Source of the DNA: a virus
Length of the DNA: 64,000 bases
Direction: 5' to 3' (one strand)
IMG/VR virus record: IMGVR_UViG_3300035698_012504
Location: 58,694 to 122,693 of that record
Numbering within the stretch: position 1 is the first letter of the stretch; each line of letters starts with the position of its first letter. Shown in pieces: positions 775 through 49,544 of this stretch. The notes under the pieces were generated by a model, which was given only the letters and a program-made list of their open reading frames with translations, did no database searches and had not been told where the DNA came from. The translations under genes were made by a program, and so were the position numbers.

Positions 775-1161
775 ATGGCTAAGAAAGAAAAAAATAAAGA
801 ACTATTTGACATAATAGATGGTATATCTTTAAATAGAGTAGACCTATTCACGATGCGTGATCGTCTTAAACTAATAGATGGTAAGATGGAAGCAATATTT
901 CCTGAATCTAAAGATTACTCTAAAAGATATCTACTAGAAAATAAAATAAAAACAATAGTAGAGTTCCAAAAAGTAAGACTTGATGTCAACAGAGCAATCG
1001 AAGGTTCTTTTAAGAGCGAGTTCGAAGTGAGAAGAAAAGTTATGGGAGATGAGAAGGAAGGTGATGAAGTTGACATTCGCGAGGTTGTCAAAATAATTGA
1101 AGAATTAGATAGAAATAAGACTAAGACTACGACTATGATTGGAAAGGAAGATAATGGATAA
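775..1161 (+). CDS. hypothetical protein (Lys/Glu-rich)
   Basis: ORF abuts upstream and downstream genes with an ATGA-type overlap. Confidence 0.4.
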   Translation: MAKKEKNKELFDIIDGISLNRVDLFTMRDRLKLIDGKMEAIFPESKDYSKRYLLENKIKTIVEFQKVRLDVNRAIEGSFKSEFEVRRKVMGDEKEGDEVDIREVVKIIEELDRNKTKTTTMIGKEDNG

Positions 1162-3424
1162 ACTTGTTGAAGAAGAATCAATTCCTGCAGTGCAGGAGAA
1201 AAAGAAAAAGAAAACTTTGCTACCTCAGGTCCCAACGGAAGCGGCAGCATCAATAGAAGAAGATACATTAATAACTAGTAAATATTCGGATGTCAAGCTG
1301 ACAGAAGGTGAATTAGAAAAATCTAAAGACTTATTTGAAGACTTTTCTTCTTTCCTTAAAAAAGGATATGACTTTACTGAATCAAAAGAAAATAAGACAA
1401 CTATTCCTACTGGTATAGATCTATTGGATACTGTACTTGGTGGAGGAGTCTCGACAGGATTAGTACAATTTGTTGGGCCTCCTGGTTGTGGAAAAGCACA
1501 ACCATTGTATTCTAAAATTTTAACACCTAGTGGTTGGAAGACTATGGGAGAAATGAAAATAGGAAATAATGTATTTGATTCTAGAGGGGAAATTTGTAAT
1601 ATTACAAATGTATCTCCACAGGGGGAAAAGGATATATATGAAATAAAATTTACCGACGGAACCAAAGCTAGATCCACGTTAGACCATCTTTGGATATGTA
1701 AAAAAGATTATAAATCAGAATTTAAAGTTAGACGATTAGAAGAGATTTTTGAAGATATAAATAACCAACATACTAGCGATAAAAAATGGACCATACCTGT
1801 TAATAATGCTATTAATTTTGATAAAAATAATTTACCGATTGACCCATATTTATTGGGGTGCCTTTTGGGAGATGGATCTATGTATAGTCGAAATGATAAA
1901 ATATCTCTTACAGTATCTGATAAATATAAAGAAATTATAAATATTTGTGAAAAAACCCTCCCAGATAATATAAAATTAGAGGTAATTAATGGCTCAAAAT
2001 ACGGATATATATTTAATAGAATGAATAGAAGAGGTCAAGGCAAAAAAGATATTTTACGCAATGAGATGAAAGTTATTTTAAATGAATTAGGATTATTGGG
2101 AAAAAGTTCTAAAGATAAATTTATACCAGATTCATATAAATTTAGTTCAATTGATGATAGATTATCAATCTTACAAGGGTTATGTGATACTGATGGATCT
2201 ATAGAAAAAACAAATAGAATGTGTTTTTATTCAATATCTAAACGATTGATAGATGACGTAGCATTTATAATTAGATCATTGGGAGGAAGAATAAAAATAT
2301 ATAATAAAAAAACAAAATATAATGGGAATATTTTTAAATCATTTCAACTAGATATAAACCTACCAAATTGTTTTCCCCCAGTAAGAGTAAAAGAAAAATC
2401 AAAGTTATTATCAAATATAAGAAAAAGAACCATAACGAAATGTATAAAATCGGTTAAGTTTGTTGAAAAATCAGAAGCTCAGTGCATAGAAGTTAATAAT
2501 CCAAATGGGTCATATATAACTGACGAGTTCATAGTTACTCATAACTCTACATTGGCTGCGAAGGTTATATCTTCGGGTCAAAGGAAATGGCCTGGAAAAT
2601 TTATATCAGTATACTTAGATTCAGAAAATACAACTACTAAAAAAAGACTTACAGATCTTGGAGTTAAATATCCAGAGATAAATCCACAAAATGGAATTAC
2701 AATCGAAAAGGTATTCTCAATCGTTGAGGGGTTATGTGCATATAAGGAAGAACACAAAGATATACTAGATGTACCATCCATTATAGTATGGGATAGTATA
2801 GCGAGTACTCCTACTGAAGCTGAGGTAACAACTAATACAGAACAATTAAGTATACAAGCAAGTGCCCTTACTAAATATCTTAAAAAATATTCTGATAAGA
2901 TGGCAAATTATAATATATGTTTGTTCGCTCTGAATCAACTTAGAGATAGTATGCAGGTTGGTAAATTCAAAGGATTTAATAAACTAAAATTTCTTGGAGC
3001 GTATAATATTCCAGGAGGTAATGCTAATCTATTCGCATCTACACAACTTTTTTTCTTCAGGCCTACTGGAGATGTAGCAGGAGAGTATGGATTCAATGGA
3101 GTTAAGCTCACAGGAAAGGCTGTAAAGAATAAGTTATTTTCTCCAAACATTGACATATCCATGATAGTTAGTTTCGAAAGAGGCTTCTCAAACTTCTGGA
3201 CAAATTATGAACTACTAAAGAGAACAAAAAGAATTAAAGCTGCCGCTTGGTGTACATTAGAATCGTATCCTACTCAGAAGTTTAGACAGAAGGAAGCGAT
3301 TAAATATTACAGAGAAAATGCTGAATTTAGAAAAGCATGGGATAATGATGTAGAGGACGTGCTTAGAACTGAGATAATAGAACAGTATGAAACAAGTGAG
3401 GAAGACGCCGACGTTTGGAAATAA
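1139..3424 (+). CDS. RecA-like recombinase, intein-containing
   Basis: Extein motifs: GIDLLDTVLGGG...GPPGCGK[intein]STLAA (Walker A); IIVWDSIASTPTEAE; LFALNQLRDSMQVG; GGNANLFASTQL; KAVKNKLFSP. These match conserved RecA blocks. Confidence 0.8.
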   Translation: MERKIMDKLVEEESIPAVQEKKKKKTLLPQVPTEAAASIEEDTLITSKYSDVKLTEGELEKSKDLFEDFSSFLKKGYDFTESKENKTTIPTGIDLLDTVLGGGVSTGLVQFVGPPGCGKAQPLYSKILTPSGWKTMGEMKIGNNVFDSRGEICNITNVSPQGEKDIYEIKFTDGTKARSTLDHLWICKKDYKSEFKVRRLEEIFEDINNQHTSDKKWTIPVNNAINFDKNNLPIDPYLLGCLLGDGSMYSRNDKISLTVSDKYKEIINICEKTLPDNIKLEVINGSKYGYIFNRMNRRGQGKKDILRNEMKVILNELGLLGKSSKDKFIPDSYKFSSIDDRLSILQGLCDTDGSIEKTNRMCFYSISKRLIDDVAFIIRSLGGRIKIYNKKTKYNGNIFKSFQLDINLPNCFPPVRVKEKSKLLSNIRKRTITKCIKSVKFVEKSEAQCIEVNNPNGSYITDEFIVTHNSTLAAKVISSGQRKWPGKFISVYLDSENTTTKKRLTDLGVKYPEINPQNGITIEKVFSIVEGLCAYKEEHKDILDVPSIIVWDSIASTPTEAEVTTNTEQLSIQASALTKYLKKYSDKMANYNICLFALNQLRDSMQVGKFKGFNKLKFLGAYNIPGGNANLFASTQLFFFRPTGDVAGEYGFNGVKLTGKAVKNKLFSPNIDISMIVSFERGFSNFWTNYELLKRTKRIKAAAWCTLESYPTQKFRQKEAIKYYRENAEFRKAWDNDVEDVLRTEIIEQYETSEEDADVWK
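1496..2545 (+). mobile_element. intein with LAGLIDADG homing endonuclease inside the RecA P-loop, candidate class 3
   Basis: Begins AQPLYSKILT right after GPPGCGK and ends VTHN followed by S. Two LAGLIDADG motifs (LLGCLLGDGS, LQGLCDTDGS). Block B is TLDHLW; Cys at the block-F position (AQCIE); Thr two residues before HN. Confidence 0.7.
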
Positions 3425-23602: not shown

Positions 23603-23785
23603 ATGCATAAAAGTTGGCAAGAAGCAATAGATGCAATGAGAAAAATGAACTTATTTAGGGGTCATAATGCAAGTGAACGAAAAGTATGCGAATTTTTCCA
23701 AGAACAAGCAGACTTGCAGGAAATGTCAGAAGGTAAAGAGATTCCATTAATTAGAAAAGAAAAGGAGTTTAATGAACCAAAATAA
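23603..23785 (+). CDS. hypothetical small protein
   Basis: ORF. Confidence 0.3.
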   Translation: MHKSWQEAIDAMRKMNLFRGHNASERKVCEFFQEQADLQEMSEGKEIPLIRKEKEFNEPK

Positions 23786-25463
23786 ATTTTGTGTTTATAT
23801 GCTTGAAATTAAAGGTGTAGATGATCCAAAAAATGATAAATATTATGTAAAAATAGGATATACTACTAATCTAGAAGAGAGGATTAAAAATTTAACATCA
23901 ACGAAAAAACGTGAATTTTATGAAATCCATCATATTGATTATAATACTACTAAGAAACCAGAAGATATAGAGAAAGAAGTACAAGGAAACTATAGACTTC
24001 ATAAAGGCAAATGTAAAGAAATTGGATCAGATGAAATATATGTAGTAAGTGAAGAAGAAATGGCAGGATTTAAATGTATCCCATTCAATGGAGTTAAACC
24101 ATTATGTATGCGGATTATAGGAAATAAACTTATTTCACATATAATTAATGGAATGTATAAAAATATATTTGAAATATCATTAAAAGATTTTCCTACACAC
24201 TTACCTATAAATAATTGTACATCTTTTAATAATTATAAACAACTAATGAGAGATGCCAATCCAAGAACACAAGATTTAACATCAAAAATATGCAATATTA
24301 TAGATCTTAGCGCGAAAAATGAATTAGAGGATCAAATTAAAAATGATTTTTATAATAAAAATAAGGGTATAGAAGTTTTTGCGCGATATATATTTAAAGT
24401 AAATAAAAATGAATTCAATGTATATTTTCAACCAGGAGTATTTGATGAATTCGGCAAAATAATTGAAGAAAAAGGATTACCACAAGGAATAGGGGATGGT
24501 AGAAACACATCTGGAAAATTATACGACAGAGTTATAGATGATAAAAATACAAATAAAGGCGTATTTGATCCATTTAATACAAATTCTGTTAAATTAACGA
24601 TAAATATATCTAATAATGAACATCAAATAAGTGAGATGGTTAGATGTCTTAATGATTCTGTTTCATTAAAAATTAGATCTATAGAAAATTCTAAAGGTAA
24701 TTATGTTGAATTAAAATCTGAGTTGGATAAATATTCAGATAATGGACAAAGTTTTAAATCATTTATAGGATGGACTGAAAATGATCCAGGTATAATTGTA
24801 GATTTAACATTATTAAAATATTCTATGCTGCTAAATATAGACAATAAATTTTTCCCAAAAGATATATATAACGAGGATGGTACATATGATCGAGTAATTC
24901 AATATTATGGATTATCTTCAGAGGTAATAAAAAATCTAGATGAACAATATAAATCTAAAGTGTATCCGTTATCACCATTTATACTTCTAATTATAGATAA
25001 ATTTAATATAGAATTAGATTTTAATGATGATAAATATTCTGATGGTAATAAAATAAAACTATTATCATATGTCAAATCAATCAAATATGATTCAGCCTCT
25101 AAAAAGATAAAGATTCCAAAAGAGTATGTAAAACCTTTAACATTTTTAAGCATATATTTAAAGAAAAACATAGATGTTAGTAGAGATTCTCTACCTTATA
25201 ATAAAAAACCCATATGGTTTCCAATATTATTTGGAATGAGACATTTTATAAAACAAGAAGAAAAATCTTTTGATTTAATATGTCCATTTGATGAAATATT
25301 AAATATACATATTCCAAAATTGGCACCTATAATTAAAAAGTATTTGCTTAGATCATTAAAAGAGGCAGGATCTGAACGAAATATGGCAATCACAATATCT
25401 ACCTATTCTTCAATCAATCAAAGAATCGCAGAGTATGTAGATGAACATATTAAATCCAAATAA
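23772..25463 (+). CDS. large protein with N-terminal T5orf172 / GIY-YIG-superfamily domain
   Basis: N-terminus CVYMLEI...YYVKIGYTTNLEERIKNL fits the T5orf172 (GIY-YIG-like) pattern; remainder uncharacterised. Confidence 0.45.
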   Translation: MNQNKFCVYMLEIKGVDDPKNDKYYVKIGYTTNLEERIKNLTSTKKREFYEIHHIDYNTTKKPEDIEKEVQGNYRLHKGKCKEIGSDEIYVVSEEEMAGFKCIPFNGVKPLCMRIIGNKLISHIINGMYKNIFEISLKDFPTHLPINNCTSFNNYKQLMRDANPRTQDLTSKICNIIDLSAKNELEDQIKNDFYNKNKGIEVFARYIFKVNKNEFNVYFQPGVFDEFGKIIEEKGLPQGIGDGRNTSGKLYDRVIDDKNTNKGVFDPFNTNSVKLTINISNNEHQISEMVRCLNDSVSLKIRSIENSKGNYVELKSELDKYSDNGQSFKSFIGWTENDPGIIVDLTLLKYSMLLNIDNKFFPKDIYNEDGTYDRVIQYYGLSSEVIKNLDEQYKSKVYPLSPFILLIIDKFNIELDFNDDKYSDGNKIKLLSYVKSIKYDSASKKIKIPKEYVKPLTFLSIYLKKNIDVSRDSLPYNKKPIWFPILFGMRHFIKQEEKSFDLICPFDEILNIHIPKLAPIIKKYLLRSLKEAGSERNMAITISTYSSINQRIAEYVDEHIKSK

Positions 25464-46421: not shown

Positions 46422-47018
46422 ATGAATGAAACAAATATTATAATAGCAACAGAACAAGAGCTATCATCAGAAGAATTTCCATATACCTTAAGTCTTAGAC
46501 GAAAGGAAATTGATAACGAAAAAGAACTCCATAAATTTATAGCTTCGTGTGAGAGAATGATGAGAAATTCACCGGAGTATAAGATGTGGACTGGATATGT
46601 TAGAGATGTATTAGGGCATAGAGCGTGTTCTATAACTGGAGAAAAATTAGGAGAATTATCTATAGATATCCATCATCATCCGTATAGTTTATATATTATA
46701 ATAAAAGGATTAATTTTAAAATGTGTTGAAGAAGAGAATGATTTTTGTAGTTTTGATATTATTACTAAATGTATAGAGTTTCATTATGAAAATAAAATTC
46801 CGTATGTTCCTATCGTTAAATCATTACACGAAAAATTTCATAATGGTTTTTTAGCTATACCAATTTCATTATGTCATGGGGATATAGATTATTTTATGAA
46901 GTATTATTCATTCTTATTAGAAGATGAAGAACAAGAAACAATACTTAAAAGATTAAAAATAACAACTGATAATTGTGGATGGGAAATTGGATATAAGTGG
47001 GTGAATTCAGATGGATAA
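46422..47018 (+). CDS. hypothetical protein (His/Cys-containing, possible nuclease-associated)
   Basis: ORF; IDIHHHPYS segment; directly upstream of the GIY-YIG gene. Confidence 0.35.
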   Translation: MNETNIIIATEQELSSEEFPYTLSLRRKEIDNEKELHKFIASCERMMRNSPEYKMWTGYVRDVLGHRACSITGEKLGELSIDIHHHPYSLYIIIKGLILKCVEEENDFCSFDIITKCIEFHYENKIPYVPIVKSLHEKFHNGFLAIPISLCHGDIDYFMKYYSFLLEDEEQETILKRLKITTDNCGWEIGYKWVNSDG

Positions 47019-47715
47019 TTTATATTACGTATATGTTTATTTAGATCCTAGAAAAAAAGATATTTATAAATATGGAAATTTTTTATTTGAAAATGAACCA
47101 TTTTATGTAGGTAAAGGAAAAGGAAATAGATACAAACAACACCTGCAACCTTACCATCTGAAAAAACAAACATATATGTCCAAAAAATTAAATAAATTGT
47201 TAAGAAAAGATATAACACCAATTATAAAAATAATAGAATGTGATATAACAGATCAAGATGCTAAATTTATTGAAGTTGATTTAATAAAATATATAGGTAG
47301 AATTAACAAAGGATTGGGTCCTCTTACAAATCTTACAGATGGTGGGGATGGCTCTTCTGGTAGAAAATGCAATAAAGAAACTAAATTAAAAATTTCTATA
47401 TCTAATAAAGGAAAGACAAAAGGTAGAGCGAGTGAAAAAAGAAGTATTAAATTATCCGATTCAACTAAAGAAAAAATGTCTAAATCAACAAGTGGAATAA
47501 AAAATCCAATGTTTGATAAAAAACATAAGAAAACTACAATAGAAAAAATGTCAATAATTAAAAAAGGTAATCAATATGGAAGAAAAATATCTAATAAAAT
47601 TAAAGATGAGATAATTAAGCTTTATTCTTCAGGAGAATATACTCAATTGGAGATTGGAAATATATATAATGTTCATAGAAAAACAATAGGAAAAGTAATC
47701 AGGGGATATAAATAA
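47011..47715 (+). CDS. GIY-YIG homing endonuclease with NUMOD3-like repeats
   Basis: YYVYVYLDP...PFYVGKGKGNRYKQH GIY-YIG core; repeated ETKLKISISNKGKTKG and KEKMSKSTSG DNA-binding modules. Confidence 0.7.
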   Translation: MDNLYYVYVYLDPRKKDIYKYGNFLFENEPFYVGKGKGNRYKQHLQPYHLKKQTYMSKKLNKLLRKDITPIIKIIECDITDQDAKFIEVDLIKYIGRINKGLGPLTNLTDGGDGSSGRKCNKETKLKISISNKGKTKGRASEKRSIKLSDSTKEKMSKSTSGIKNPMFDKKHKKTTIEKMSIIKKGNQYGRKISNKIKDEIIKLYSSGEYTQLEIGNIYNVHRKTIGKVIRGYK

Positions 47716-47891: not shown

Positions 47892-49544
47892 ATGGCTAGT
47901 GCTTACTCAATAAAAGTAGACTCAAGAAGAAAAGCTAGAGTGTCAACTGATCTAGATAACCTTAGAAGTAGGTATATGGATACAGATGATTTCTTTTTTT
48001 ATAGAGAGATCGAACAAATAGAAGAAGATAAACGACTAGCTGAACAAAATCTAGATGTATTAATATCTAATGGTGGAATGGACATAGGTAGAATAAATAT
48101 ATTAACCAAAAGAATAAAAATGTTACAGAGTGCCATGGATACATCCGTTATAGATCAATATAGCAGAGATACGCAAAGATTAAATGTTACATTCCCTTCA
48201 GGTGAAATTTATTCTTTTGAAAAAAATCTATATGTTTTGATATCTGAATCAAAAAAGGTTCCATTTAAAGCTGAGTGGACAATGAGACCAGACTATGTAA
48301 GTCATGACATGTATAACTCAGAAATATATTGGCCCATGATTCTTTTTGTAAATAGGGTGTACATGATAGAAGAATTCACAGGGTTTAATGAAATATTAGT
48401 ACCACCATTGGACTCTATTTTATTTCTTACTAAAGATAGGATTCCTTATTCGGATACAAGTCCACTGTATGAGTTTGTTCCAAAAAATATATTGACCTAT
48501 TTCCAAAGACATCCTTTAGATGATATAGAAATAGAGAAAAGAGTTAGAGATGAATCACTTAAAGATTCCCCAGGTACTCCTGATCCTGTTGATATATCCG
48601 GAACATTAGTAGAAAGCAGTCCCAATATAATTATAACTACAGATGATATATTAAACAAGAGAGTGGCATTGGCAAATACCCCTATCAATAATTCATCTAT
48701 CGTTGTAAAAATAAATGATTATGATATCATTCAGAGATATGGGTATGATTATTTCCATCAGTTACTAAGCGATGGAACTAGCTATATCAATTGGGATGGT
48801 GATTTATGTGAGCTTGGGGATGGGATGGTAAATATTTTATCAGTAGGAGATATTCTCCATGTAGAATATGCATATGGTATGGGTAGACTAGCAAATATTT
48901 GCTACAATGAAGATTGTGGACACCCAGGACTAATTGCTGATGTTCATTGGAGTTTATTGGGTCTCAGCGATACGTCAATGTTATTTATGTTAATGTTTGG
49001 GTCATATATGTTAGTAGGATTCCCTCTCTATGATGCTGATAGTGATGGAGGAATACCTCTATTAGATACTGATACTATATTACAAGCTATCTTTGGTAGC
49101 GATCCGATTGCAGAGTTTATGGTCGAAATAATAATAAGACTTATGGATAGAGATTATGATGGTTATATTGAACCATCTGATCTGATTAGGATGTTTGAAT
49201 TAACAACAGCACAAGGAATTGGACCGGGTAATTACTTTGGCCATTTAGCTACAGAAATGATACCAGCATTCAATAATTTTGATTCGAATGGTAATGGGCA
49301 AATTACTTTAGCAGAATTCATAAGTTATTTTCCAACATTGTTTGTCGGTATAGATCCTTATGGAGATAACACACTGATATTATTCTTTTTAGAAACATAT
49401 GAAACCGCAACAATTCAACAACGACCAATACTTCTAGAATATTGGTTTGATATGCTTGATGAGGATGGAGTTGGAGTTCTTACTACTTCTGAGTTAACAA
49501 CGGCAGCATCCGAAGCAATACCTATAAACTTCGACGATTTTTAG
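47892..49544 (+). CDS. large protein with C-terminal EF-hand-like calcium-binding loops
   Basis: DRDYDGYIEPSD, DSNGNGQITLAE and DEDGVGVLTTSE fit the 12-residue DxDxDG EF-hand loop. Confidence 0.45.
   Translation: MASAYSIKVDSRRKARVSTDLDNLRSRYMDTDDFFFYREIEQIEEDKRLAEQNLDVLISNGGMDIGRINILTKRIKMLQSAMDTSVIDQYSRDTQRLNVTFPSGEIYSFEKNLYVLISESKKVPFKAEWTMRPDYVSHDMYNSEIYWPMILFVNRVYMIEEFTGFNEILVPPLDSILFLTKDRIPYSDTSPLYEFVPKNILTYFQRHPLDDIEIEKRVRDESLKDSPGTPDPVDISGTLVESSPNIIITTDDILNKRVALANTPINNSSIVVKINDYDIIQRYGYDYFHQLLSDGTSYINWDGDLCELGDGMVNILSVGDILHVEYAYGMGRLANICYNEDCGHPGLIADVHWSLLGLSDTSMLFMLMFGSYMLVGFPLYDADSDGGIPLLDTDTILQAIFGSDPIAEFMVEIIIRLMDRDYDGYIEPSDLIRMFELTTAQGIGPGNYFGHLATEMIPAFNNFDSNGNGQITLAEFISYFPTLFVGIDPYGDNTLILFFLETYETATIQQRPILLEYWFDMLDEDGVGVLTTSELTTAASEAIPINFDDF

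Follow-up and report, generated by a model that had tools for sequence, protein, structure and literature searches.

Recombinase gene and its insertion

The window analyzed in this study is a stretch of 64,000 nucleotides of viral DNA (positions 58,694 to 122,693 of IMG/VR record IMGVR_UViG_3300035698_012504). Near its 5' end lies a gene for a RecA/UvsX-like recombinase whose P-loop is interrupted by an element that appears to be a full-length class 3 intein. The open reading frame (ORF) of this gene runs on the + strand from an ATG at 1154 to 3424 and encodes 756 residues. The ORF list placed the start at a TTG at 1139; the ATG at 1154 overlaps the stop codon of the upstream ORF, has a Shine-Dalgarno-like run (GGAAAGGAAG) just upstream, and is also the start from which an identical 756-residue metagenomic protein (P0001, on contigs of up to 80 kb) was called. 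The N-extein (1154 to 1495, +) ends in the Walker A sequence GPPGCGK (1475 to 1495). The intein follows directly and in frame at 1496 to 2545 (+); its 350 residues correspond to residues 115 to 464 of the host ORF and comprise a HINT splicing domain into which a LAGLIDADG homing endonuclease domain is set, and by sequence it belongs to class 3. The C-extein (2546 to 3424, +; stop codon at 3422 to 3424) opens with a Ser codon (TCT, 2546 to 2548), which supplies the Ser of Walker A and, by prediction, the +1 nucleophile of splicing, and continues TLAAK. Further downstream it contains a Walker B-like IIVWDS (2780 to 2797, +) and the sequences NQLRD (2933 to 2947, +) and GGNANLF (3014 to 3034, +), of which NQLR and GGNA.F resemble the RecA motifs NQIR and GGNALKF.

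Walker A is thus interrupted as GPPGCGK|350 residues|STLAAK (vertical bars mark the intein junctions), and excision in silico yields a 406-residue protein with a continuous GPPGCGK-STLAAK. The same site was found to be empty in every intein-free orthologue examined. Three metagenomic orthologues (P0006, P0008, and P0012), 49 to 50% identical over the extein, have an uninterrupted G(P/M)PGSGK-S(A/T)L. At 20 orthologous loci in IMG/VR, on viral contigs of 46 to 277 kb and with 37 to 54% identity to the C-extein of the host, GxxG(S/C)GK-S/T was uninterrupted in 20/20. Examples of these empty sites are GPPGSGK-S (e.g., GPPGSGK-SALVS), GQPGSGK-S/T, and GFPGCGK-S, and the gene upstream of the recombinase is syntenic in three of the intein-free loci (L003, L011, and L025). 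Because all 23 intein-free orthologues are collinear across the site, the junctions are fixed at Lys|Ala1 and Asn350|Ser+1, and on this comparison of sequences the boundaries of the intein are exact. An earlier reading of the DNA letters alone (the sequence-only reading) had proposed an intein at 1496 to 2545 splitting Walker A, and its coordinates and motifs were all borne out.

The same reading had the intein begin with Ala, and this start held as well, since realignment to a Cys, Ser, or Thr start is ruled out by the K|A junction seen against the 23 empty sites. A class 1 intein with mis-set boundaries, starting at a nearby Cys or Ser, could be imagined, as there is a Cys (that of GPPGCGK) 3 residues ahead of the proposed junction. 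Such a start would remove Gly-Lys from the spliced Walker A, and it conflicts with the orthologues, in which GPPGSGK-S, GQPGSGK-S/T, and GFPGCGK-S are continuous across the site. Furthermore, nearly all of 113 full-length relatives align from intein residue 1 or 2, right after the Lys of Walker A or, at a second site in PhoH proteins, after an Arg, and the solved class 3 inteins are in register to within one residue. Misplaced junctions were therefore considered to have almost no likelihood.

With respect to the identity of the host, the spliced extein scored 51.6 bits with Pfam RecA (E value of 1.2e-13; cut-off, 27 bits) and also matched PHROG 97, the UvsX-like recombinases, with an E value of 6.5e-46. 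Core features of a RecA-family ATPase are present in the form of Walker A GPPGCGKS and the Walker B-like IIVWDS. The NCBIfam RecA equivalog TIGR02012 scored 41.5 bits, below its threshold of 325.3, with RecA positions 69 to 319 matched weakly by the C-extein. In tblastn searches, phage UvsX-like recombinases matched the host at 21 to 27% identity, with those of AR9/PBS1-type and SPO1-type phages standing nearest among the named relatives (about 26%). Judged by these sequence matches, the host is a divergent RecA/UvsX-like recombinase and not a RecA orthologue. The label "RecA" given to it earlier is therefore appropriate at the level of the family (Pfam RecA and PHROG 97) and not in the sense of bacterial RecA proper (41.5 versus 325 bits).

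Class 3 signature and predicted splicing

Class 3 inteins have been defined by a non-nucleophilic residue 1, a co-varying triplet (WCT) of Trp at B:12, Cys at F:4, and Thr at G:5, and Ser or Thr at +1 (PMC2807308). Each of these features was found in the window intein: the non-nucleophilic Ala1, the W-C-T triplet, and a hydroxyl residue, Ser, at +1. The block A region at the N terminus (1496 to 1537, +) reads AQPLYSKILTPSGW and begins with Ala1 (GCA, 1496 to 1498). Block B, TLDHLW (1676 to 1693, +), was aligned to the class 3 prototype and supplies Thr61 (B:7), His64 (B:10), and Trp66 (B:12). Block F, AQCIEV (2477 to 2494, +), places Cys330 (codon 2483 to 2485), the predicted branch-point nucleophile, at F:4, where Asp is usual. 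The intein ends in FIVTHN, with Thr348-His349-Asn350 at G:5 to G:7 (2537 to 2545, +), and Asn350 is predicted to cyclize. The sequence-only reading had put the Thr "two residues before HN"; the class 3 Thr at G:5 is indeed there, but it directly precedes His-Asn and lies two residues before the terminal Asn.

When the 113 full-length relatives were aligned, His B:10, Cys F:4, Thr G:5, His G:6, and Asn G:7 were each present in 113/113, Trp B:12 in 112/113, and Ala1 in 103/113. The intein has nine Cys residues, of which Cys330 alone is conserved (113/113), the other eight being shared by 1 to 36 of the 113. At block B position 7 (intein residue 61), 75/113 relatives have Cys, whereas the canonical Thr of the window intein occurs in 18/113. 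Such an additional conserved Cys, located three residues N-terminal to the block B His, may bear on the chemistry or redox behavior of the family.

The class 3 prototype, the MP-Be DnaB intein of phage Bethlehem (PMC2807308), was recovered from gp11 of the Bethlehem genome (AY500153) as 341 residues, which reproduce the published numbering of His65, Trp67, Cys320, Thr339, His340, and Asn341. By BLASTP, the window intein matched it end to end (E value of 1e-33, 25% identity). His64 corresponded to His65, Trp66 to Trp67, Cys330 to Cys320, and Thr348-His349-Asn350 to Thr339-His340-Asn341, and both LAGLIDADG motifs were in register. The W, C, and T columns thus coincide with those of a curated class 3 intein, the alignment that had been called for, and the Trp following the block B His and the Cys of block F, both picked out from the sequence, fall at B:12 and F:4. 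The two inteins share a HINT domain with a two-motif LAGLIDADG domain, a phage origin, the lack of an N-terminal nucleophile, the WCT triplet, the His-Asn end, and a hydroxyl residue at +1. They differ in residue 1 (Pro in the prototype, Ala in the window intein), in the +1 residue (Thr versus Ser), and in location: the prototype junction, ...SQDQ|P, lies in a different host protein, while the window intein sits at the GK|S/T position of a P-loop. In the Bethlehem record (AY500153.1, L007, 7260 to 9971), the ORF just before the portal gene is gp11, a "hypothetical protein" of 903 residues; gp62 (273 residues), which is annotated as a DnaB-like helicase, carries no intein, though the prototype is named a "DnaB" intein.

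Among the sequences of the PDB, phmmer gave the best matches to the class 3 inteins MchDnaB-1 (6RIX and 6RIY) and Msm DnaBi1 (6BS8). Columns aligned with 6RIX and 6BS8 paired HLW with HQW, QCIEV with RCVEV, and VTHN with PTHN. These two homologous inteins, from the DnaB proteins of Mycobacterium chimaera and M. smegmatis, have the class 3 signature in common with the window intein, and Msm DnaBi1 likewise lies in the P-loop of a RecA-fold ATPase, its +1 Ser being the Mg-coordinating Ser of the P-loop (PMC6195587, PMC7664689). They differ in being mini-inteins without an endonuclease and in residing in a cellular helicase. A redox switch of the kind described for Msm DnaBi1 was considered and dropped, as its Cys48 aligns with Ile in the window intein and the eight Cys other than Cys330 are unconserved.

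A recombinase P-loop is also occupied by the RadA intein of Pyrococcus horikoshii, which, as cited in PMC6195587, blocks the ATPase until splicing has occurred. That intein is class 1 (Cys1) and archaeal, and no close relationship between it and the window intein was detectable in the searches made. Its junction we take to be at the same GK|T position. The RecA inteins of M. tuberculosis and M. leprae, in contrast, are inserted outside the P-loop. They too reside in RecA but belong to class 1, and the mycobacterial RecA intein has Asp422 at block F:4, where it superposes on the Cys of class 3 inteins (PMC6195587).

The window intein is a candidate member of the monophyletic class 3 clade: its closest relatives all bear the class 3 signature, and in the BLASTP and phmmer comparisons its top similarity is to class 3 inteins. 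Signature, homology, and predicted structure together support assignment to class 3, an assignment that as far as it draws on the signature is a prediction. The main alternative in terms of chemistry is class 2 (KlbA-like) splicing, in which direct attack on the N-terminal junction would come from the +1 residue and Cys330 would have a structural role only. Ala1 is common to KlbA inteins, but class 2 inteins are without the WCT triplet and use Cys+1 (PMC2807308), whereas the window intein has the triplet and Ser+1, a poorer nucleophile for direct attack on an amide. Class 2 splicing is also difficult to reconcile with homology to class 3 inteins from end to end and with a Cys330 that is invariant in 113/113 relatives when all other Cys are variable. 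It was consequently judged very improbable.

Under class 3 chemistry, the steps of splicing were inferred from homologous class 3 inteins, namely those of Bethlehem, Deinococcus Snf2, and mycobacterial DnaB (PMC2807308, PMC6195587, PMC7664689). Ala1 should be incapable of an N-S or N-O acyl shift; instead, the thiol of Cys330, helped by His64 and Trp66, would attack the Lys(-1)-Ala1 bond, and transfer of the N-extein to Cys330 would yield a thioester, which is the branched intermediate of block F. Trans-esterification to the Ser+1 hydroxyl would then give the block G branch, and cyclization of Asn350, aided by His349, would release the intein. A final O-N shift would create a native Lys-Ser bond, restoring GPPGCGKS and an ATP-binding recombinase. 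The unspliced precursor is expected to be ATPase-dead: because the +1 Ser doubles as the Walker A Ser, unspliced recombinase should not bind Mg-ATP.

Endonuclease domain, predicted fold, and integrity

The first LAGLIDADG motif, LLGCLLGDGS (1850 to 1879, +), contains the putative catalytic Asp126, an Asp in 109/113 relatives and an invariant column in an alignment that includes the Bethlehem prototype (alignment A1). In the second motif, LQGLCDTDGS (2171 to 2200, +), the corresponding residue is Asp233, an Asp in 112/113 relatives. A block D-like segment, KFIPDSY (2117 to 2137, +), includes Lys208, which was found in 113/113 relatives; K208, I210, P211, and Y214 are invariant in alignment A1. 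By analogy with PI-SceI-type enzymes, Lys208 is presumably the catalytic or DNA-contacting Lys. The sole Pfam model above threshold on the intein was LAGLIDADG_3 (E value of 3e-10, intein residues 223 to 277), and Hom_end fell just under its cut-off. The two-motif homing endonuclease, described as intact from the sequence, accordingly appears to be so, with both catalytic Asp residues kept and its catalytic function a prediction.

The intein, extended by six flanking residues at either end, was modeled with AlphaFold2 from 65 aligned sequences, and the model had a predicted local distance difference test (pLDDT) score of 92.4 and a predicted template modeling (pTM) score of 0.92. Searched against the PDB with Foldseek, the model gave full-length matches to TliVMA, PI-SceI, PhoVMA, and PI-PfuI (E values of 1e-11 to 1e-16, with template modeling scores relative to the query [TMq] of 0.6 to 0.7). 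The endonuclease domain matched I-DmoI (E value of ~1e-6, with scores relative to the target [TMt] of 0.56 to 0.62), and the HINT part matched the class 3 mini-inteins MchDnaB-1 (TMt up to 0.80) and Msm DnaB. A HINT fold and a LAGLIDADG alpha/beta fold are therefore both predicted from the model, and on sequence and model together, the element looks intact for splicing and for endonuclease activity.

This bears on the possibility that the insertion is a decayed, non-splicing relic that has inactivated the recombinase gene, for which there is a precedent in the class 3 pseudo-intein of Arthrobacter Arth_1007, documented as non-splicing (PMC3196547). Arth_1007, however, has a WDT triplet (PMC2807308) and an extein of just 66 residues (PMC3196547), unlike the window intein. 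Here, the 756-codon ORF is unbroken, both exteins are full length and collinear with the orthologues, all catalytic positions of the splicing and endonuclease domains are kept, and the AlphaFold model is confident. Decay of this kind is thus improbable, if slightly less so than class 2 splicing.

Taken together, the data argue for a class 3 intein at 1496 to 2545 that is full length and probably active, placed between the Walker A Lys and Ser of a phage RecA/UvsX-like recombinase, with an estimated probability of about 0.88. Several observations weigh against this conclusion. The Pfam Intein_splicing and Hint models are below threshold on the intein; WCT inteins with Ser or Cys at position 1 are known whose class was left undecided by sequence alone (Tori et al., PMC2807308); and all contigs found (two or three) encode the identical protein P0001, so purifying selection on the intein is not measurable in this lineage.

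The intein-less P-loop allele would be the substrate of the endonuclease, which is expected to cut such alleles so that the intein is copied in by homing. The restored intein-less site, a candidate endonuclease target, reads GGGCCTCCTGGTTGTGGAAAA^TCTACATTGGCTGCGAAG, where the caret marks the insertion point; the form given for a plasmid target is GTTGGGCCTCCTGGTTGTGGAAAA^TCTACATTGGCTGCGAAGGTTATA, marked in the same way.

Intein family, mobility, and surrounding genes

Class 3 inteins had been described as rare at the outset, a view that was contradicted by the database searches. Among 1.84 billion cluster representatives (50% identity), phmmer with the intein returned 18,128, 12,933, and 4,557 at E values of ≤1e-3, ≤1e-10, and ≤1e-30, respectively; some of the matches in the laxer bins will be to LAGLIDADG proteins of other kinds. 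By tblastn, relatives were found in 843 deposited phage genomes. Annotations given to the family hosts are terminase, helicase, primase, and PhoH. Misleading labels were often encountered in phage genomes ("hedgehog/hint domain protein," "DarB-like antirestriction," and "homing endonuclease"), and many hosts bear these labels or that of "hypothetical protein" or are split into two gene calls.

The pattern K|A…H.W…C…THN|T/S was found in almost all of the 120 nearest database proteins, and in approximately 20 of these 120 the host is a RecA-family protein interrupted at the same position of its P-loop. One of them, P0022, is a canonical RecA (Pfam RecA with an E value of 7e-90, plus RecA_C), and its phage-like contig also carries genes for Acb2/Tad1, sequestin, Thy1, and GroES/GroEL; another intein host, P0068, is UvsX-like and its gene adjoins gp32. 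The closest relative in a phage genome is NVP1161O_150 of Vibrio phage 1.161.O (MG592529.1; L001, 2176 to 4623), a PIN-PhoH ATPase split by a class 3-type intein at GAAGSGK|AQPLYSKVLTPDGW…VVTHN|T and annotated just as "hedgehog/hint domain protein." Together with P0015, P0022, and P0068, it exemplifies a family of unannotated "GK|AQPL…THN|T/S" P-loop inteins in phage PhoH, SNF2, DnaB, ClpX/AAA, and RecA proteins. These have the same junction and identical hallmark residues as the window intein and are 32 to 48% identical to it over the full length, although the host differs for the nearest of them. A second PhoH site outside Walker A (…MRGR|A/S…THN|T/S) holds relatives with the HWCTHN residues in P0005, P0007, P0014, P0018, and P0085, and also in P0002 to P0004. 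Some metagenomic PhoH proteins of 900 to 1,270 residues appear to hold more than one such intein.

Matches to the complete gene were scarce. When the DNA of the complete gene was compared with 50,697 phage records, only three short matches (80 to 105 bp) appeared, at the 5' end of the intein, which indicates that the phage has no close sequenced relative. By tblastn of the whole precursor against the deposited phage genomes, no place was found with ≥80% cover matching both extein and intein. The sole match reaching into the N-extein was to Parabacteroides phage PF672P2, where Pfam shows a LAGLIDADG domain only.

The class 3 hosts named in the searchable literature are DnaB, PhoH, SNF2, RecG, terminase, and Cas4; in actinobacteriophages, a survey from 2025 placed class 3 inteins in four host proteins only, and no recombinase was among them. 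At a recombinase P-loop, the intein known is that of Pyrococcus RadA, which belongs to class 1 (as cited in PMC6195587). No class 3 intein in RecA or UvsX was found to be described in the searchable literature, a scope outside which the curated lists of class 3 and RecA inteins fall, and two papers mentioning both an intein and UvsX (PMC2988022 and PMC10638138) describe no UvsX intein. The suggestion made from the sequence that a class 3 intein at a RecA P-loop had not been reported therefore stands for the searchable literature; as a claim of uniqueness it does not, given the ~20 RecA-family hosts among the 120 nearest proteins. The RecA/UvsX host is new to the literature, while the element and its site are not new in kind.

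The intein was present in 1 of the 24 orthologous loci examined, the other 23 being empty, which fits homing into intein-free P-loop alleles. When intein sequences only were compared, the highest identity was to that of P0015, which has an AAA_28 host (48%), followed by inteins in PhoH, ResIII, and SNF2 hosts (40 to 43%) and then by those hosted in RecA (32 to 39%). In a neighbor-joining tree without support values, the RecA-hosted inteins fell into at least six groups, and the window intein paired with that of P0015 and belonged to none of them. Its G+C (GC) content of 27.3%, compared to 34.9% for the exteins and a mean of 34.8% for the window, is in the bottom 3.7% of windows of the same size. 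Identity, tree, and GC content together suggest independent acquisition by a jump between P-loop sites. Two points temper this: the tree that separates the window intein from the RecA-hosted ones is the one without support values, and the GC deviation is modest (z = -1.5), making foreign origin by GC suggestive only.

A recent extein switch is a more specific and rather doubtful proposal. The intein would have jumped between unrelated ATPase families by way of their shared GxxGxGK(S/T) coding sequence, an idea based on nearest relatives that lie in non-RecA ATPases, on other RecA-hosted lineages that exclude the window intein, and on the 23 empty orthologues. Extein switching through nucleotide-binding sites has already been proposed for class 3 inteins (2025 actinobacteriophage survey). 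An endonuclease target shared with P0015 was looked for and rejected, as the restored sites are alike only at ~TGG..TGGAAAA^.C.AC, which is too little.

The two strongest low-GC islands of the window (24 to 27% GC), at 23772 to 25463 (+) and 47011 to 47715 (+), carry GIY-YIG-type homing-endonuclease-like ORFs, one with T5orf172/MUG113 and the other with a LEM-3-like GIY-YIG and NUMOD3. Low-GC patches in the genome coincide with selfish nuclease elements, the intein included.

Overall, the window resembles part of a large, poorly characterized, jumbo-phage-like genome. Nearly all of its genes share one strand, and for the majority no PHROG match was found; recognizable ones include an NAD-dependent DNA ligase, an RNA ligase, and a 5'-nucleotidase (NT5C). 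A gene like that for the β' subunit of multisubunit RNA polymerases lies at the 3' end (60796 to 64000, +) and runs off the window; it has the motif GADFDGDMMAIYVPMS and Pfam Rpb1 domains 2, 3, and 5. This ORF seems to carry two inteins three residues apart, …SERIMK|CSAGLVHY…MVQNHN|SFH|CIDGDMLLY…, placed by reading in the trigger-loop region (…TM.TFH…). Both begin with Cys and are hence class 1-like. The first putative intein (62203 to 63357, +) has 385 residues and the degenerate LAGLIDADG motifs LGTFILNG and LTGLIDNNG, and the second (63367 to the window end, +) contains LLGFFLAEGS and runs off the window. Elsewhere, a 914-residue protein encoded at 30648 to 33392 (+) matched the shoulder domain of Major Vault Protein (PF11978, E value of 7.7e-28) and a Vault_3 repeat (E value of 4e-10) with no PHROG or NCBIfam match, which was unexpected on a phage-like contig. 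A 550-residue protein (47892 to 49544, +) has EF-hand calcium-binding motifs (Pfam EF-hand_1, E value of 2e-14) and no PHROG match.

The practical value of these results is modest, and no new mechanism is revealed. The solved class 3 structures found here are all mini-inteins, while the window intein is full length with an endonuclease and a very confident model, and it is therefore a reasonable candidate for structural studies and splicing experiments, as well as for tests of extein switching from one ATPase P-loop to another. A recombinase of the RecA/UvsX type is added to the class 3 intein hosts described in the literature, and the "GK|AQPL…THN|S/T" P-loop family is shown to be large and mostly unannotated or misannotated in phage genomes. 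That splicing conditionally gates recombinase activity during infection is a weaker possibility. If the doubtful extein switch did take place, RecA/UvsX would be a repeatedly and independently invaded target.

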